Shown one piece after another: positions 6,438 through 23,933 of a stretch of DNA of 64,000 bases (its first letter is position 1; each line of letters begins with the position of its first letter). This DNA is from a virus: positions 27,499 through 91,498 of IMG/VR virus record IMGVR_UViG_3300019776_000550. One strand, given 5' to 3'. The translations under genes and the position numbers were made by a program. Below the pieces are notes generated by a model. That model had not been told where the DNA came from. It searched no databases and saw only the letters and a list, made by a program, of their open reading frames with translations.

Positions 6438-7092
6438 AAGATTTGTATTTATAAATGTTAATAATAAGTTTTCGGTAATTTGAAACTGAATTTGGGTTGT
6501 TAGAAATTACAATTTCATGTTCAATTCTTTTAATGCAATGAACATTATCATTGAGTATAAATCCAACAGGATTTTTTTCTACTACCCCACGTTCAGTAAA
6601 TTCATGTTCTTGTATTACATCTAAAAATGTTTTTTCGTAATACTGTTTGTAATTATCTAAATCATCAATATTAGATTTTGTAGGAGCTACATCATCTAAA
6701 GTTGTGAAATAAATAAATTCTATTCTAATAGGTTCATTTATAATAGCAGAAGGTTTAAGACTTTTCTTAAAATAATCTTTAAGGTATCTTTTGATTGCTA
6801 TATAATTACCTAAATCCATTTGACTTTTTTTACTATTACCTTTAGTATGAAGCCCTTGTCCTGCAATTTTTAAAAAGCGTTGTGTACCAGCTTCTTTTGC
6901 ATTGCTTAAAATAGGTTCATAAGTAGACAAATCTACTAAAACACCTTTTTTATTAAAATCACAAGTATAACCAATTTCATTAGTTAACTTCTTAGGTATT
7001 TTTTTAGAAGATTTAGTGTAATACTTTGCTCTTATTATTCCTTTAGGAACATATCTTGGATAATCATGAAATACAAATTGTCGTAGTAGCAT
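6415..7092 (-). CDS. RusA-like Holliday junction resolvase
   Basis: DLDNY...KTFLDVI...GFILNDN acidic motif spacing of RusA. Confidence 0.6.
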   Translation of the reverse strand: MLLRQFVFHDYPRYVPKGIIRAKYYTKSSKKIPKKLTNEIGYTCDFNKKGVLVDLSTYEPILSNAKEAGTQRFLKIAGQGLHTKGNSKKSQMDLGNYIAIKRYLKDYFKKSLKPSAIINEPIRIEFIYFTTLDDVAPTKSNIDDLDNYKQYYEKTFLDVIQEHEFTERGVVEKNPVGFILNDNVHCIKRIEHEIVISNNPNSVSNYRKLIINIYKYKSYEDTLGD

Positions 7093-17554: not shown

Positions 17555-18388
17555 TTATGCGTTGATTTCTGTTAACATACCAAGATTACGAACTGCATAT
17601 TGGTTTTGTAACCACTCTTGAAATTCAGCATTAAACAATGCACCTTGTTTTACTGCAACAGGAACACTATCAGCAGGGATAACATCATCATGCTTAAATT
17701 CAGCATTATTTTTCAATTCATTTGCTCTAAAACCTGCTAAAGACGCTTGTATGTCAGTAGTAGGTCTTACTACTAATGTAGTAAATTGAAAAATGAGTTT
17801 ATTATTTAATAACAAAACATCACCTCCTTTACCACTACGCTTGGGTTCAAGTGTAATCAAACCTGTTGTGGTAAGCTGTGGCATTTGAAGAGTTGTTGTG
17901 TTATTACGAACAATATACGTAACAAAATTCTTCTTTACTAAACTTTCACTAAAGTTAAATCCATCTTTAATACCATTAGCTTCACAAAAAGCCAATGTTG
18001 TAGTTTGCCAAAAATACTTTTGGCGACTTGAATTTGACACTCTACCCATTAGGAAATAACCTAACAGACTAGAACTGTCTTCAATTTCATCACTTGATTC
18101 AACATTTTGAGTAAACTCAAGTTGAAACGTAAGTGCATTAATACATGTAATACGTTTTTCTTCTTTTGAAGAATTTACAAATGCAGCATTAGGTTCTGCA
18201 TTAAATATTTGTTTATATACAAAACCAAGTTCTTCATGGCTTTTATCAATAAACAAAGCATTTTTACTGGCTTTGATTTCTTCATAAGAAGTCATTCCAG
18301 TAGCTGCAATAGTAGGTTTTGTTATTTTAACTTTGTTAACAATAACTGGATTTGTGATTTCGAACGGATTTGAAATTTCAGTTGACAT
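17555..18388 (-). CDS. hypothetical protein
   Basis: 277-aa ORF with its own terminator. Confidence 0.8.
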   Translation of the reverse strand: MSTEISNPFEITNPVIVNKVKITKPTIAATGMTSYEEIKASKNALFIDKSHEELGFVYKQIFNAEPNAAFVNSSKEEKRITCINALTFQLEFTQNVESSDEIEDSSSLLGYFLMGRVSNSSRQKYFWQTTTLAFCEANGIKDGFNFSESLVKKNFVTYIVRNNTTTLQMPQLTTTGLITLEPKRSGKGGDVLLLNNKLIFQFTTLVVRPTTDIQASLAGFRANELKNNAEFKHDDVIPADSVPVAVKQGALFNAEFQEWLQNQYAVRNLGMLTEINA

Positions 18389-19502: not shown

Positions 19503-19535
19503 ATATTCCTATTCAGTAAAACTAAATAGGAATAT
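19503..19535 (-). terminator. hairpin / terminator
   Basis: ATATTCCTATT/AATAGGAATAT. Confidence 0.55.
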
Positions 19536-19552
19536 AATCATTTGTCCATCAT

Positions 19553-19768
19553 TTATCTGAAATATACGAAAATGTCGTCGTATATTTCAGATACAACCAC
19601 TACTGCTCCAATAAGAGCAAACATTAGACCGCCACCTATTAAATAGGCGACTGACATTATTACTTCATGGTAATTAATGTCAAATATAAGACTGATAAAG
19701 GCTGCAGGAATTACGAATAGAATAGACCATACAGCTACAAATCCAATAAGACAAATTAATGCTTTCAT
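19553..19768 (-). CDS. small two-TM membrane protein
   Basis: Two hydrophobic helices; A14 leader. Confidence 0.65.
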   Translation of the reverse strand: MKALICLIGFVAVWSILFVIPAAFISLIFDINYHEVIMSVAYLIGGGLMFALIGAVVVVSEIYDDIFVYFR

Positions 19769-19800
19769 TTTATTTTTTTTTTTTTTAAGGTTTATGTTCT

Positions 19801-19871
19801 TTTTTCTTCACTCTGCTTTTTACAAGGACTTGTGACCTTCTATATTAAATATAGGTAGCATTAAAGAAAAA
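19801..19871 (-). ncRNA. twister self-cleaving ribozyme (type P1)
   Basis: Minus RNA UUUUUCUU-UAA-UGCU-ACC-UAUAUUUAAUAUAG-AAGG-UCAC-AAG-U-CCUU-GUAAAA-AGCA-GA-GUG-AAGAAAAA. P1 (8 bp), P2, P3, P4 and both pseudoknots (CAC/GUG; AC/GU) align with the twister consensus. Predicted cut U19863/A19862. Confidence 0.92.
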
Positions 19872-19897
19872 GCATCTATTCTCCCAACAGATGCTTT
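19869..19897 (-). terminator. terminator-like hairpin overlapping twister P1
   Basis: AAAGCAUCUGUU-GGGAG-AAUAGAUGCUUU followed by UUCUUU. Confidence 0.55.
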
Positions 19898-19908
19898 GAA
19901 TAGTTGTG

Positions 19909-20049
19909 CTACACTTTTACACAACTAAGAATCAAGGAACTTTCATCCTTAATAATAGAAATAGCTTCCATAACAGAAGAAGCTTCAATTTCCATATTAA
20001 GAACAATAATTCCTGTTCTCAGACGGTAACTTACTAAATACTTGTTCAT
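19909..20049 (-). CDS. small hypothetical protein (46 aa)
   Basis: Own translation MNKYLVSYRLRTGIIVLNMEIEASSVMEAISII... Confidence 0.55.
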   Translation of the reverse strand: MNKYLVSYRLRTGIIVLNMEIEASSVMEAISIIKDESSLILSCVKV

Positions 20050-20082
20050 AGTATTAGGTTTAAATGTAAGAAAATAGAATTA

Positions 20083-20253
20083 CTATTGAATTTTAATAAT
20101 TCCGTCATAATCTACGGAATATATCAAAAATCTTTTATCTCTTATCTCTCTCCAGATAGAAGCATTTTTCAGAGTTTTTAATCTTTCTAACGCATCTTCT
20201 AATGATTCAAACCATATATATTCATAGTCTGAATTAAATATAAAGTATTCCAT
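20083..20253 (-). CDS. small hypothetical protein (56 aa)
   Basis: Own translation MEYFIFNSDYEYIWFESLEDALERLK... Confidence 0.55.
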   Translation of the reverse strand: MEYFIFNSDYEYIWFESLEDALERLKTLKNASIWREIRDKRFLIYSVDYDGIIKIQ

Positions 20254-20326
20254 AATAAACAATTAAAAATGAATAAAACAGAATTGTGACAGTTTCTAAG
20301 ATAACTGACAAAACTTATTGTTTGCA

Positions 20327-20548
20327 TTACAATATTGTAACACCTGTTAAAACTCTTGAAGTTGTATTATTTACAACTTCATAAAATTCCCAAACCATGT
20401 CTCCATTGTTATAATTAAACATAGAGACATAAATAGAATTAGAATCATAACATTCTAATTCTATAAATTCTTTCCATGCTTTTTCCAAACCATTTTCATG
20501 GTTTGTATGAGTTGGGAAAAATTCAATAAATTTCAATTCTTTCAACAT
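20327..20548 (-). CDS. hypothetical protein
   Basis: ORF. Confidence 0.6.
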   Translation of the reverse strand: MLKELKFIEFFPTHTNHENGLEKAWKEFIELECYDSNSIYVSMFNYNNGDMVWEFYEVVNNTTSRVLTGVTIL

Positions 20549-20742
20549 AAATCTTCTATTTTTAAATCTAAAACTGGAAGTTCTTTTACTATTTTGTAAT
20601 AATAACTTTCTGAGTCATCAGTAGGTTGATTATTAACAAAATTCTGAACTTTTTCTAAGTCTTTTTCTTGTATCTTACCTAGTAAGATATTTTCATCACA
20701 GTGTCCTTTACCGTGATAATAATATTTGAATAAATACATCAT
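20542..20742 (-). CDS. hypothetical protein
   Basis: ORF with poly-A leader. Confidence 0.6.
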   Translation of the reverse strand: MMYLFKYYYHGKGHCDENILLGKIQEKDLEKVQNFVNNQPTDDSESYYYKIVKELPVLDLKIEDLC

Positions 20743-20781
20743 TTTTTTTTTTTTGATTTAATTACACAGCTTAAAATAAAA

Positions 20782-21650
20782 TAATTACAATTGTATGATT
20801 TAATGCAAGTAGTTTGATTAACTTCTCGGAACTAACTTTCATAAGAATTTCTTCTTATAACCAGTACATCCTTTGCACATACAATTGTAATTAATTGTTT
20901 TTAAATGTTCGGTTGTGTCTGTTTTGTATATCACAACTTTATCTTACACATCTATTGAGAAACCTCCAATGTCTCAAATGTTTTTCAATGTGTAAACCAG
21001 ATGCTTTACTTCAAACATTTCAAAGCTTCAATGGAGTTTGTAAGCTTTGAATAACAATGACCTTTTAACTTACATGATTTTCTCATGTAAAACTTTTATA
21101 AAAGTAGTTTCAAGATTTATTTAGACACGTTTATCTCATCATCAGATTGTTTTCGTGTATATTTTAATTCAAAACTTAATAATAAAACAACAACTCTAGG
21201 TGTACATATCATAGGTAGTGAGCCTATGTACATATTTTTCACAGTTGAGCGTTGTTGCTTTATTATCTACTTCTAATAACATCAGTTGTCTTTTGTTATT
21301 AGATTCACCTTCTGTTCACTCTAAGCAAGTACGTGTTATTGTATTAACACAATGCGATATGAGCATAAACAGTTTTCATCTCCTTATTTAAGGGAAACTA
21401 GGTTAGTCAAAAAAAAAAGAAGTAGTTTATTCTTTCAGATGTCTTTTAAAAAGACGGAAAGATGGACACAGCTGACATTGTAAGCAGTCCTACTTCTTTT
21501 ACGTAATCCTACCATCATGTCACTAGGTAGGTTTCCCACTCAACCTTCTATCATTATGATAGCTAACCCTTGTGAAGTTAGAATGAGGTTTTAAGAATCG
21601 TTAGTTTTATTCTGTTGCCAAGAAAAACTAACAAAAAACTCCGAATCTTA
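20782..21650 (-). ncRNA. ORF-free tract of tandem structured RNA elements
   Basis: At least nine consecutive stem-loop or junction modules; G-U pairs favour the minus strand. Confidence 0.65.
21049..21158 (-). ncRNA. type I hammerhead ribozyme (variant core)
   Basis: Minus: stem I AACAAU/AUUGUU; CUGAUGA (21145-21139) plus extra U; stem II GAGAU/AUCUU; GAAAC; long stem III; GUC (21061-21059); ACACG/CGUGU pseudoknot. Confidence 0.7.
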
Positions 21651-21651
21651 T

Positions 21652-22002
21652 TCAGTCGCAGAGTTCAGACCTAACACAACCTGAATGTGCAAATGGAAAT
21701 CCATCATACATTCCACCTCCGCAATGACTACAAGTAGTCTCTGCAAAAGTGTCATGGATTTTTTCCATTGCTTCATTGGTTGCTGGTTCAGACATCAACT
21801 CTAGCAATACTTTCCTTAAATCATAAGGATTATGGACTTTGTAAGTATTATGCTCACAATCCATAGCGTATGCAGAGTCAATATTCTCATGCGTTATGTT
21901 TATACACTTATTATTGTAATAAGCTGATAAGCAATAAACATGAGGTAGTCTGTGACCATTAAAGTCTAAACCAAACTGCTCTACAAGGACTAATTCTGTC
22001 AT
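21652..22002 (-). CDS. hypothetical protein with C-terminal Zn-finger-like CxxC...HxxC
   Basis: Track ORF 21652..22041; start MTELV after A-rich leader; CSHC...HSGC. Confidence 0.65.
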   Translation of the reverse strand: MTELVLVEQFGLDFNGHRLPHVYCLSAYYNNKCINITHENIDSAYAMDCEHNTYKVHNPYDLRKVLLELMSEPATNEAMEKIHDTFAETTCSHCGGGMYDGFPFAHSGCVRSELCD

Positions 22003-22144
22003 TGTTTTACAATTTAATTTAAAAAGTTTTTCTACTAACATAACTTCTAGTAGATAAAGTGATACTAATTACCTGTTGATTCTCAAGATGTATCAAGTCT
22101 TGATTCCTTATACTCAGTTAGCAGGTTCTGAGTTTAGGATTGAG

Positions 22145-22510
22145 TTACAGAGTAACCACTTTCTCTCTCAAATTACGAGAGACATGGTTTCTCAATGTCT
22201 GCAAATCTGCCTGTTCTTTACAGACAAACTCTCCATTTGCTTCTCTAACAAGAGTAGCAATAATAGGAAAGTTCCCTGTAAGTCCATGCAGTGCTACTAA
22301 TACCATAGTAGCTAATGCAGACATTCCTGGAACTGCTACCGTAACAACAGTATTACTTTCAACCCCTAAAGATTGAAGATACTTTGTTACAGCTTCCAAA
22401 TTTTCCCCAAATGGTTTTTCAGGGTTAATTTGAACAGTTCCATGAAACTCAAATCCTAATTCATCAAGACTCTTGTTAAAGTGTCCTGACAAGTTAAGTT
22501 TCTTGTTCAT
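22145..22510 (-). CDS. Csx15-like protein (CARF-related, type III CRISPR-associated family)
   Basis: LNLSGH...INPEKPF.E...PGMSALA..VL..LHG.TG.FP.I..L.R...DLQ.LR...R..R matches the Csx15 pattern over the full length. Confidence 0.75.
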   Translation of the reverse strand: MNKKLNLSGHFNKSLDELGFEFHGTVQINPEKPFGENLEAVTKYLQSLGVESNTVVTVAVPGMSALATMVLVALHGLTGNFPIIATLVREANGEFVCKEQADLQTLRNHVSRNLREKVVTL

Positions 22511-22683
22511 TTTTAAGGAACGTAGGAAACTAATGTGTTCTATTCTAAGTAAGAACACTTAACTTGCAACCACTAAAGTAGGTTACTTTCACTTTGTAGC
22601 ATATTTAAAAATCTGGAGGTAATGCTACTTAACCTCACTGTTAGCTTTTTATATAAAAAAGCTAAAAAAACAAAAACAAAAAG

Positions 22684-22710
22684 AAAAAAAAGCTAGGATT
22701 AACCTAGCTT
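22684..22710 (-). terminator. rho-independent terminator of first early gene
   Basis: AAGCTAGG/CCTAGCTT overlapping the stop codon, followed by a U-run. Confidence 0.7.
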
Positions 22711-22929
22711 GAATTTCTGGATGATAGCGTCTAACACGCTATCAGCAACACCGTAACCATTTGCGTATTCAATAACACTGACTTCTGCATCAGTGAATTT
22801 CTCCGCGATACATATTAACGTTTGCGAAGCTTTTGACAGCTTCTCGTAAATTTCGTCGGTGACTTCCACACCTTTTCTGCCCGATACCTTTCTATCGGTA
22901 TCTTTAACATCTAACTTTATCTGAGCCAT
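22699..22929 (-). CDS. hypothetical protein, first gene of leftward unit
   Basis: ORF with A-rich leader and its own terminator. Confidence 0.7.
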   Translation of the reverse strand: MAQIKLDVKDTDRKVSGRKGVEVTDEIYEKLSKASQTLICIAEKFTDAEVSVIEYANGYGVADSVLDAIIQKFKLG

Positions 22930-23317
22930 TTTCTTTTTTGTTTAAAGTTTATTGGGGGTACAACCCCTCGCAATTTCAGTAGGGGGTGGCTAAGGTAAGT
23001 AGTTCCTCAATCAGCAAATTTCCACAACTTCTATTAAAATTATGATGTCTTCATTCAGCAAATCTTTTTGTAGCACTATAATCAGCTAGGGGGGTCTTTT
23101 AGTATATTAATCCAAAGTACCTTCTTTTGTAGTAGGGATATTAGGTATATCATGTTCAGCAAGTGTATTTTTAATGTCAATTCTATTGTTCTAATGGGGG
23201 TTATTCAGTAGGTTTTTGCTGTTTTTGGCTGTTTTCATTTTAAAATAGTTTTTTTAAGTATATGGAAAACGGTCATTTTAAGCTACTTTTAGAGTTAACT
23301 GCCTGATTATCAATCAG

Positions 23318-23362
23318 TTTACTATGTCAAAATTATAATTTTACTATGTCAATATTTTGACA
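23318..23362 (+). repeat. 13-bp direct repeat plus palindrome
   Basis: TTTACTATGTCAA at 23318 and 23340; TGTCAA-TATT-TTGACA at 23347-23362. Confidence 0.75.
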
Positions 23363-23372
23363 GTTTTTTCGC

Positions 23373-23380
23373 TATATTTG
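23373..23380 (+). promoter_or_regulatory. Bacteroidota -7 promoter box
   Basis: TATATTTG matches TAnnTTTG, 19 nt before the ATG at 23400; no well-spaced -33 box. Confidence 0.45.
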
Positions 23381-23399
23381 TACAAATCATTTGATAAAA

Positions 23400-23933
23400 A
23401 TGAAGATAAAAGAAGTAATAAAAATCAATAAAGTAGCTGTAAAAGTAAGAGATGTAGATATAGGTGTTAATCCTTTCATGAAAGATGTAAATATTAAAGT
23501 ATCTGTAGTAAATTTAGAAGGTGATTATGTTAAAGAGGATGATTTATACTTACCAAATAACACTTATATTGAATCAGAACCTTATACAAAGATTTTTATA
23601 AATGCTGAAAACAGAAAAATTGTTAATAAATTAACACAACGAGGTAAAGATTTGCTATTATGGTTGCTTTATGAGATGGAAGCTGGTCAAGATTTTATTA
23701 AAATTAATAAAGTTAGATATATGAAAGAATTAAGTATCAAATCTGTTAATACTTATAAAACAGCTTTATCAGAATTAATAAGATATGGTATGTTAAAGGA
23801 GTCAAAAGCAAAAGATATATACTGGATTAATTCACAATTCTTTTTTAATGGTAATAGAATCAAGAAATATAAAAAACAACTGATAAATAAAGATGGCAAT
23901 AGAATTAATAATAAAGAGAAAGGCGTTTCCTGA
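23400..23933 (+). CDS. RepL-like winged-helix replication/regulatory protein
   Basis: LLLWLLY...SVNTYKTALSELIRYGML...IYWINSQFFFNGNRI, the C-terminal motif of RepL-like proteins. Confidence 0.75.
   Translation: MKIKEVIKINKVAVKVRDVDIGVNPFMKDVNIKVSVVNLEGDYVKEDDLYLPNNTYIESEPYTKIFINAENRKIVNKLTQRGKDLLLWLLYEMEAGQDFIKINKVRYMKELSIKSVNTYKTALSELIRYGMLKESKAKDIYWINSQFFFNGNRIKKYKKQLINKDGNRINNKEKGVS

Follow-up and report, generated by a model that had tools for sequence, protein, structure and literature searches.

Clusters of self-cleaving ribozymes in phage DNA were described by Perreault et al. 2011, who reported hammerheads flanking single genes or small gene groups in prophages, ardA included (PMC3088659). 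Tandem hammerheads in prophage transcripts of ~2 kb were all cleaved in vitro, and the processing of long phage RNA was proposed; spliced or circular products were likewise proposed for hammerhead clusters and were not detected when sought (PMC3088659). The twister class goes back to Roth et al. 2014, as cited in a 2019 review that describes the role of bacterial and phage self-cleaving ribozymes as still undetermined (PMC6765202). Here we analyze a window of 64,000 nucleotides (nt), bases 27499-91498 of a complete 91.5-kb viral genome with direct terminal repeats (IMG/VR record IMGVR_UViG_3300019776_000550), and within it a group of small open reading frames (ORFs) at window positions 19800-22640 that includes a Csx15 homologue and is punctuated by three predicted ribozymes. 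A sequence-only reading of this DNA had placed a twister and a hammerhead here and had proposed an early transcript that cuts itself into pieces. We find both classes, with comparative support, plus a second twister; Rfam models detect only one of the three elements, the twister that we call tw1.

The locus resembles the published clusters in that co-oriented, intergenic ribozymes punctuate small phage genes, including one for anti-defence (ardA there, the candidate Csx15 here and in relatives), and in that the processing of long transcripts is proposed and circles are speculated upon (PMC3088659). It differs in mixing classes (two twister types and one hammerhead), in belonging to a crAss-like freshwater phage, in having two variants that Rfam does not detect and junctions between exchangeable cassettes, and in that cleavage was observed in vitro there and is predicted from sequence here. 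Because the clusters and the processing proposal were published in 2011 (PMC3088659), the system-level idea is not new. What is new are two variant ribozyme families invisible to Rfam, a rule for the structures at the ends of the predicted fragments, and a link to cassette exchange. The three predicted ribozymes are as follows.

21533-21597, minus strand: variant twister (tw2), recognized by covariation; predicted cut U21593/A21592.
21053-21158, minus strand: variant type I hammerhead, member of a covarying family; predicted cut C21059/A21058.
19805-19867, minus strand: type-P1 twister (tw1), matching RF03160; predicted cut U19863/A19862.

At the hammerhead site, a CUGAUGA core with one extra U leads into stem II (GAGAU/AUCUU), GAAAC and a stem III that is branched; the triplet GUC and AUUGUU, which pairs with AACAAU, come next, and the 5' flank of the site forms a 5-bp pseudoknot with loop II. 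A permissive hammerhead grammar finds this single site over both strands of the window; its thresholds were fixed after the match was seen, and roughly one in 100 dinucleotide shuffles gives an equal match. Searches with two conserved blocks brought up 30 viral loci, and a covariance model (R2) matches 28 sequences; the family holds at least 25 distinct viral members. Core positions C3-A9, G12-A14 and A15.1-U16.1 are present in all 25, with U or G at N7 and GUC or GUU as the triplet (NUH). Around this core the helices change sequence and keep their pairing: stem I occurs in four forms (AACAAU/AUUGUU, ACUGAC/GUCAGU, AAUGGU/ACCAU and AUUGAC/GUCAA), the pseudoknot between 5' flank and loop II in three (ACACG/CGUGU, AGUGG/CCACU and ACUGG/CCAGU), and stems II, IIIb and IIIc covary as well. 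Two-sided changes affect 8 of 31 pairs among three sequences and 21 of 30 in a 28-row alignment (24 distinct sequences); neither count was reached in 500 shuffles, and slid controls were far lower. Since MAFFT misaligned the members that carry an insert in stem II, we used anchor-based parsing and covariance-model alignment.

With type I hammerheads (RF00163) and the pseudoknotted hammerheads of PMC3088659, the family shares the CUGANGA...GAAA...NUH core, three helices of which stem I is open, and a pseudoknot of Watson-Crick pairs between the stem I side and loop II. It differs in that the pseudoknot runs through the 5' flank of stem I instead of a loop, and in three further features: an extra U after A9, a position at which many members hold a self-folding hairpin of 17-80 nt; an invariant G-U at 10.1/11.1; and a stem III that is a junction with a closed domain of variable length (14-99 nt among the five members parsed), the same five keeping the stem III hairpin loop (U)GAGAAAAUC. 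Cleavage is predicted 3' of position 17, that is, between C21059 and A21058. The coordinates of both predicted cuts named by the sequence-only reading, here and at U19863/A19862, hold on recomputation, as does the size of the fragment between them (1196 nt). A large subgroup (L070-L094), most of whose contigs (94-188 kb) come from a single sample, has a GC-containing hairpin after A9 and lies between an ORF of 82-103 amino acids (aa; 365 aa in three members) and one of ~600 aa. A match in L044 was set aside as chance. A second CUGAUGA-U core in the related phage G001 (L011 ~1634-1700) could not be completed to a hammerhead, no matching stem III or cleavage site having been found. This second core has a clean stem II (GCUU/AAGC) with GAAAC and sits just upstream of a 68-aa membrane-protein ORF.

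The variant twister has the layout P1-UAA-P2, a 9-nt L4 loop UUCACAAGG and a P5 hairpin. Its central part, 21536-21594, is a discrete module that is relocated in L002, the sole close relative. A search of viral sequences by pattern yielded four further members and hence a five-member family (10 of the 15 matches to the first pattern were rejected as chance), in which UAAAACCUCAU, UUCACAAGG and AAGGUUGAGUG are common to all and P1, P4 and P5 vary by compensatory changes. Pairing holds in 95.5% of cells across the five members, and 9 of 23 pairs show two-sided changes, a level reached by none of 500 shuffles and compared with 0-1 in slid controls. In a sixth, diverged copy, the second in phage G003, compensatory changes give ACUC/GAGU for P2 and CCA/UGG for the T2 pseudoknot. 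The motifs UAA, CA(C/N)AAG in L4 and GAGUG are kept in the family together with both pseudoknots, and a covariance model built from it (R1) cross-matches a canonical-type twister. Against the twister clan (CL00120), the helix order is the same except that P5 replaces P3; tw2 departs from it in the 9-nt L4, a T1 pairing of U-G plus C-G, and only AA before P2'. We predict that tw2 is a self-cleaving twister that cuts at U21593/A21592. The check proposed with the sequence-only reading, covariation in related phages, thus comes out positively for tw2 and hammerhead families alike, pseudoknots included. Among 185,579 bacterial and archaeal genomes the tw2 pattern has seven matches, none confirmed by R1, and therefore gives no clue to the host.

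The other twister, tw1, is of type P1. It matches RF03160 at 58.9 bits (E 7.5e-12 in 4.6 kb; E 3.5e-14 in the whole genome), in a full-length alignment with zero non-canonical pairs, and its subtype is present in 19 viral stretches. The full order P1-UAA-P2-P3-P4/L4-AAA-P2'-GAGNG-P1' is retained, and both pseudoknots, T1 and T2, are able to pair, with CAC/GUG (L4) and AC/GU in place of the consensus CCC/GGG and GC/GC. Self-cleavage is predicted at the U-A step of UAA. A peak of sequencing depth at 19768-19805 is explained by a poly-T run.

In all three families the ribozymes lie between genes, in the orientation of the adjoining ORFs, and structures recur at the ends that cleavage would create. 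Twisters would cleave at their own 5' edge, and in 12 of 21 instances, where about one is expected by chance, the 40 nt leading up to the cut belong to the top 5% of their locus by stability; tw1 and tw2 of the window both obey this rule. These hairpins have no U-run behind them in the GC-richer phages, which argues for protection of 3' ends and not for terminators. The hammerhead variant would be cut at its own 3' edge, and in 17 of 25 members it starts no more than 10 nt from the upstream stop codon, so that the ribozyme itself would form the structured 3' end of the upstream fragment.

The ribozymes also sit where relatives differ in gene content. Relatives are mosaic, with ORF-sized cassettes at 20083-20262, 20542-20742 and 19553-19768 that are cleanly present or absent; two of the cassette-loss junctions hold 2-23 other letters. 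One relative carries a different segment of 226 nt in place of the cargo that follows tw2 (joint 21400->21531), and homology breaks at both ends of tw2 (21594-97 and 21531-34) and at the 3' end of tw1 (19800-19810). The same ribozyme can precede different cargo: tw2 stands before the leader of Csx15 in G001 and G003 and before other cargo in the window, and the G001 homologue of the 59-aa ORF lies upstream of tw2. Ribozyme arrays recur in the related phages G001, G003, L045 and L058.

We consider it probable that the ribozymes cut polycistronic or read-through RNA at cassette junctions, leaving structured ends. As we picture it, an accessory-gene unit of small exchangeable cassettes would be transcribed leftward from the strand switch, with three coding-strand ribozymes at cassette junctions (cuts 21593/21592, 21059/21058 and 19863/19862). 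Polycistronic or read-through RNA would be cleaved during its synthesis; the upstream fragment would end in the preceding hairpin (twister) or in the ribozyme itself (hammerhead), and the downstream fragment would begin with a 5'-OH on a fixed leader. In this picture we infer catalysis, co-transcription, early timing and any effect on RNA stability or translation. Self-processing of the transcript, as the sequence-only reading had it, is the most economical account and matches the proposal made for other phages (PMC3088659, PMC6765202); its single early transcript and its circles are not supported, as set out below.

The stability and translation of each cassette would in this model be uncoupled from the sequence upstream, as in an engineered ribozyme insulator. 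Insulators of the RiboJ type carry a self-cleaving ribozyme at the 5' edge that strips variable upstream RNA and gives expression independent of context. The likeness lies in a ribozyme at the 5' edge of a unit that removes upstream RNA; the difference is that RiboJ is a synthetic device, and that the role here is deduced from position, the hairpin rule and cassette exchange. We offer tentatively, as a possibility on which we would not insist, that the twister and hammerhead modules with the pre-twister hairpins are natural insulators that mark and isolate mobile accessory and anti-defence cassettes, that of Csx15 among them, which pass between phages with no other relationship.

Several observations weigh against cleavage at cassette junctions. 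Rfam at its gathering thresholds has zero matches in the entire window, tw1 itself lying below the RF03160 gathering score (58.9 vs 67.2 bits). Neither the twister models on tw2 nor the hammerhead families on the hammerhead give any match at E <= 10, a 1-kb scan included, and RF00163 and RF02276 have no match in G000-G004. The window hammerhead has no directly flanking ORF; with its extra U, the G-U at 10.1/11.1 and a stem III base of only 3 bp, this copy could be slow or regulated, and the G001 copy lacks both ends and the cleavage site. Runs from RNA libraries supply contigs of relatives, which carry no RNA ends, strand or level, and tw1 lies outside their coverage. Finally, with terminator-like hairpins and their U-runs lying ahead of both tw1 and tw2, transcription may reach the ribozymes by read-through only. 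Internal terminator-like hairpins (22710-22690, ~21405-21500 and 19897-19869) also argue against a single obligatory long transcript, and several transcripts, or read-through, are as possible as the one long early transcript of the sequence-only reading.

Other explanations can be set against cleavage at cassette junctions. Ribozymes and hairpins might mainly serve cassette mobility, as junction sequences of selfish or recombining modules whose cores provide homology for exchange and for which cleavage is secondary or serves the module. This accounts for tw2 being 79-92% identical among phages of 91-138 kb that otherwise share almost nothing, for homology that breaks exactly at the tw2 ends and the tw1 3' end, for the module at 20771-20904 that is 99% identical in a different context, and for a 10-nt word, unique in the genome, that flanks a 1.2-kb block. 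We nonetheless find it doubtful, since covarying stems and pseudoknots and invariant catalytic nucleotides point to selection on the RNA fold and not on DNA homology only; next to the modules we detected neither a recombinase nor an integrase, and the ORFs have no family matches. Mobility and insulation of expression are not mutually exclusive. It is unlikely, we think, that the elements, or at least the two variants, fold and do not cleave, being ribozyme-derived elements for stability, termination or protein binding. The departures from consensus would suit such a history (the 9-nt L4 of tw2, the extra U and G-U closing pair of the hammerhead, and a 70-80-nt hairpin inserted beside the core in some hammerhead members), as would the failure of Rfam models on both variants and their unremarkable thermodynamic z-scores (-1.0 and -1.1). 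Yet the catalytic nucleotides of the hammerhead are invariant in 25 members while stems vary, the triplet stays GUC or GUU, and tw2 retains its UAA, L4 and GAGUG motifs and both pseudoknots. Some active hammerheads of viroids and satellite RNAs also have extra nucleotides between A9 and G10.1, which weakens the case further.

The sequence-only reading had gone further and suggested that the fragment of ~1.2 kb could be made into a circle. Two fragments are predicted, one of 534 nt between the tw2 and hammerhead cuts and one of 1196 nt between the hammerhead and tw1 cuts, and if both ribozymes cut, either would have the 5'-OH and 2',3'-cyclic phosphate that a host ligase of the RtcB type could join into a stable circular RNA; RtcB is present in a Bacteroides thetaiotaomicron control genome. 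The 40-nt ends of the 1196-nt piece pair at -20.4 kcal/mol compared with -8.8 +/- 3.3 for random pairs, and 0 of 400 random pairs are as low. This complementarity, however, reflects two similar local hairpins, which the respective ends retain when they are folded together. The 534-nt piece lacks complementary ends (21% of random pairs reach as low a value), we found no RtcB or Rnl ligase in the phage genome, the arrangement of flanking hammerhead and twister is not kept in relatives, and in comparable clusters circular products were sought and none detected (PMC3088659). We regard circularization of either piece as very improbable. The complementarity of the 1196-nt ends traces to the 10-nt word UAUUCAAAGC, of which the 91.5-kb genome has only two copies, at 21044-21053 and 19893-19902 (minus strand), each forming the 5' arm of a local hairpin. 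One copy lies 5 nt past the cut of the hammerhead and the other 40 nt ahead of that of the twister; together they flank a 1.2-kb block of four ORFs as a direct repeat, which may be a recombination scar.

The further features of the unit, from the strand switch leftward, are listed here.

22699-22929, minus strand: 76-aa ORF, first gene of the leftward unit (from the ORF list; no family match).
22690-22710, minus strand: terminator-like hairpin after the 76-aa ORF, 8 bp and a U-run.
22537-22595, minus strand: 5'-leader module of Csx15, two hairpins (BLAST boundary at 22595).
22145-22510, minus strand: Csx15 homologue, 121 aa (matches to NF040560, PADLOC and PDB profiles).
22031-22054, minus strand: hairpin whose loop presents the ATG of the 129-aa ORF (stem variants in two L002 copies).
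21652-22041, minus strand: 129-aa ORF with a Cys-rich C-terminus (93% DNA identity in L002).
21600-21632, minus strand: hairpin with the 15-nt loop UCUUGGNAACAGAAU (z -2.4), ending 2 nt before tw2.
21405-21530, minus strand: cargo downstream of tw2, a structured domain with a long-range closing stem, then U10 (fold z -1.8).
21179-21266, minus strand: long stable hairpin with a closing stem of ~17 bp (inverted repeat I13; z -5.0; 0 of 200 shuffles as stable).
20771-20904, minus strand: 134-nt module with 27-nt inverted-repeat arms (z -5.9; 99% identity in G001).
20542-20742, minus strand: 66-aa ORF, cassette missing in one relative (clean skip 20549->20749).
20327-20548, minus strand: 73-aa ORF (from the ORF list).
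20083-20262, minus strand: 59-aa ORF, cassette missing in two relatives (skips 20054/20057->20275; 75% identity in L002).
19909-20049, minus strand: 46-aa ORF (from the ORF list).
19869-19897, minus strand: 12-bp hairpin abutting the 5' side of tw1 (-14.2 kcal/mol, top 0.3% of windows).
19553-19768, minus strand: 71-aa predicted membrane protein, cassette missing in one relative (joint 19536->19800).
19503-19535, minus strand: terminator-like hairpin that closes the unit, 15 bp and a U-run.

The Csx15 assignment of the 121-aa ORF is sound at the level of sequence, and this claim of the sequence-only reading is borne out. The ORF scores 48.1 bits against NCBIfam NF040560, above the curated family cut-off of 35, and matches the PADLOC Csx15 model (E 7.6e-8); a profile of the phage Csx15 family matches PDB 9tet (E 4.3e-6) and 9teu, with the N-terminal SGH motif aligned. 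H10, R107, R112 and R115 are invariant across the phage family, the alignment to 9tet being compared at the N-terminal SGH motif. In HaCsx15 the catalytic histidine is H8 and a C-terminal arginine is R125 (bioRxiv 10.64898/2026.10.26.761840). The ORF shares with Csx15 a score above threshold and the SGH motif; it differs in that its carrier is a lytic-type phage of the crAss-like group and that cas genes are absent from its neighborhood. Phage Csx15 is a candidate ring nuclease or cyclic-oligoadenylate sponge directed against type III CRISPR, and possibly acts against the cyclic-oligonucleotide-based antiphage signaling system (CBASS). Our homologue search found only 8 clusters. In January 2026 Csx15 was stated to be absent from phages (bioRxiv 10.64898/2026.01.21.700848); a report of October 2026 called viral Csx15 rare, counted more than 20 metagenomic viral sequences and placed viral homologues mostly in prophage regions (bioRxiv 10.64898/2026.10.26.761840), and the crAss-like example agrees with that report. 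The leader of the gene is 92% identical in G003, holds the motif AGUGAAAGURACCUACU in three phages, and sits directly downstream of the variant twister in G001 and G003. The "small anti-host genes" of the sequence-only reading are represented by Csx15 only; the remaining ORFs have no family match in Pfam, PHROGs, NCBIfam, PADLOC or the ESM Atlas.

Most of the other proposed folds do not stand out. According to the sequence-only reading, about ten further folded elements lie in the region and would be released as free structured RNAs. A sliding z-score scan shows that the ORF-free gap is no more structured than neighboring coding DNA, whose z-scores are generally negative too, so an abundance of folded elements is not distinctive of the region; with most folds at background, neither claim is upheld. 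Two elements stand out in a 200-shuffle test, 20771-20904 (z -5.9) and 21175-21270 (z -5.0), and two small hairpins, 22031-22054 and 21600-21632, have comparative support. The 20771-20904 module (L002 7493-7613) has unrelated flanks in the 136-kb phage G001, where a tRNA-Met lies 35 nt downstream, and in a third relative it is joined to 20348; perhaps it is a mobile element resembling a miniature inverted-repeat transposable element (MITE) or a novel RNA. The stem of the ATG hairpin reads CUACUA/UAGUAG in the window and CUAUCA/UGAUAG and CUAUUA/UAAUAG in L002 (~6456-6480 and ~6935-6960), its non-coding 5' arm covarying with the coding 3' arm, and it may control translation initiation. For the hairpin before tw2, the loop UCUUGGNAACAGAAU is kept with differing stems in G000, G001 and G003 (L031 ~2550-2590; L032 ~1995-2035), and it may be a protein-binding site. 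The cargo domain at 21405-21530 (~125 nt) could form, together with tw2, a small RNA of ~190 nt in which the ribozyme defines the 5' end. A double pseudoknot proposed for 22020-22150 has a z-score of -0.33; by eye, 22042-22144 is nearly invariant between the window and L002, the whole two-gene block being 92.6% identical, and two of its hairpin loops are complementary to segments downstream.

The source virus has a GC content of ~28%, and 11 aquatic or freshwater studies have sequencing runs containing all or parts of the region. We assign it to the crAss-like phages because it encodes a family-B DNA polymerase and a major capsid protein with ~26% identity to its counterparts in crAssphage and in Flavobacterium and Cellulophaga phages; its host is probably a member of the Bacteroidota. 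Transcription switches strand at ~22930-23390, and every gene discussed here is on the minus strand beside this switch, as the sequence-only reading had described. That reading was also correct in calling the region ORF-poor, with a coding fraction of 0.54 at 19800-22640 against 0.94-0.95 in the flanking operons. A gap of 909 nt (20743-21651) is free of ORFs under code 11, code 4 and TAG=Q alike, which rejects an alternative genetic code as its cause. The 71-aa membrane-protein ORF begins 36 nt downstream of tw1. The divergent intergenic region holds a tandem 22-nt repeat at 23313-23356 with TTGACA within; read on the minus strand it gives TAATTTTG, similar to the Bacteroidota -7 promoter box, and could be a leftward promoter. 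BLASTN against GenBank phages gave no match, an IMG/VR pattern search with the flanking genes 23391-23933 and 17555-18388 returned no relatives, and a metagenome scan found three loci only, short and distant.

Because Rfam models miss both variant families, the twister with a 9-nt L4 and a P5 and the type I hammerhead with an extra U or hairpin by the core and a branched stem III, surveys based on such models undercount phage ribozymes. Viral Csx15 is rarely seen, and the locus supplies one more case, from a crAss-like phage. Ribozymes are located at the junctions of cassettes swapped between phages, and the rule for structures at fragment ends agrees with a role in RNA-end protection or insulation. 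If these modules are indeed natural insulators, a cassette would be expressed with a standard 5' end and with its 3' end protected at any landing site; phage ribozyme clusters would then have a definite function, and it would be clear why the class of ribozyme does not matter.

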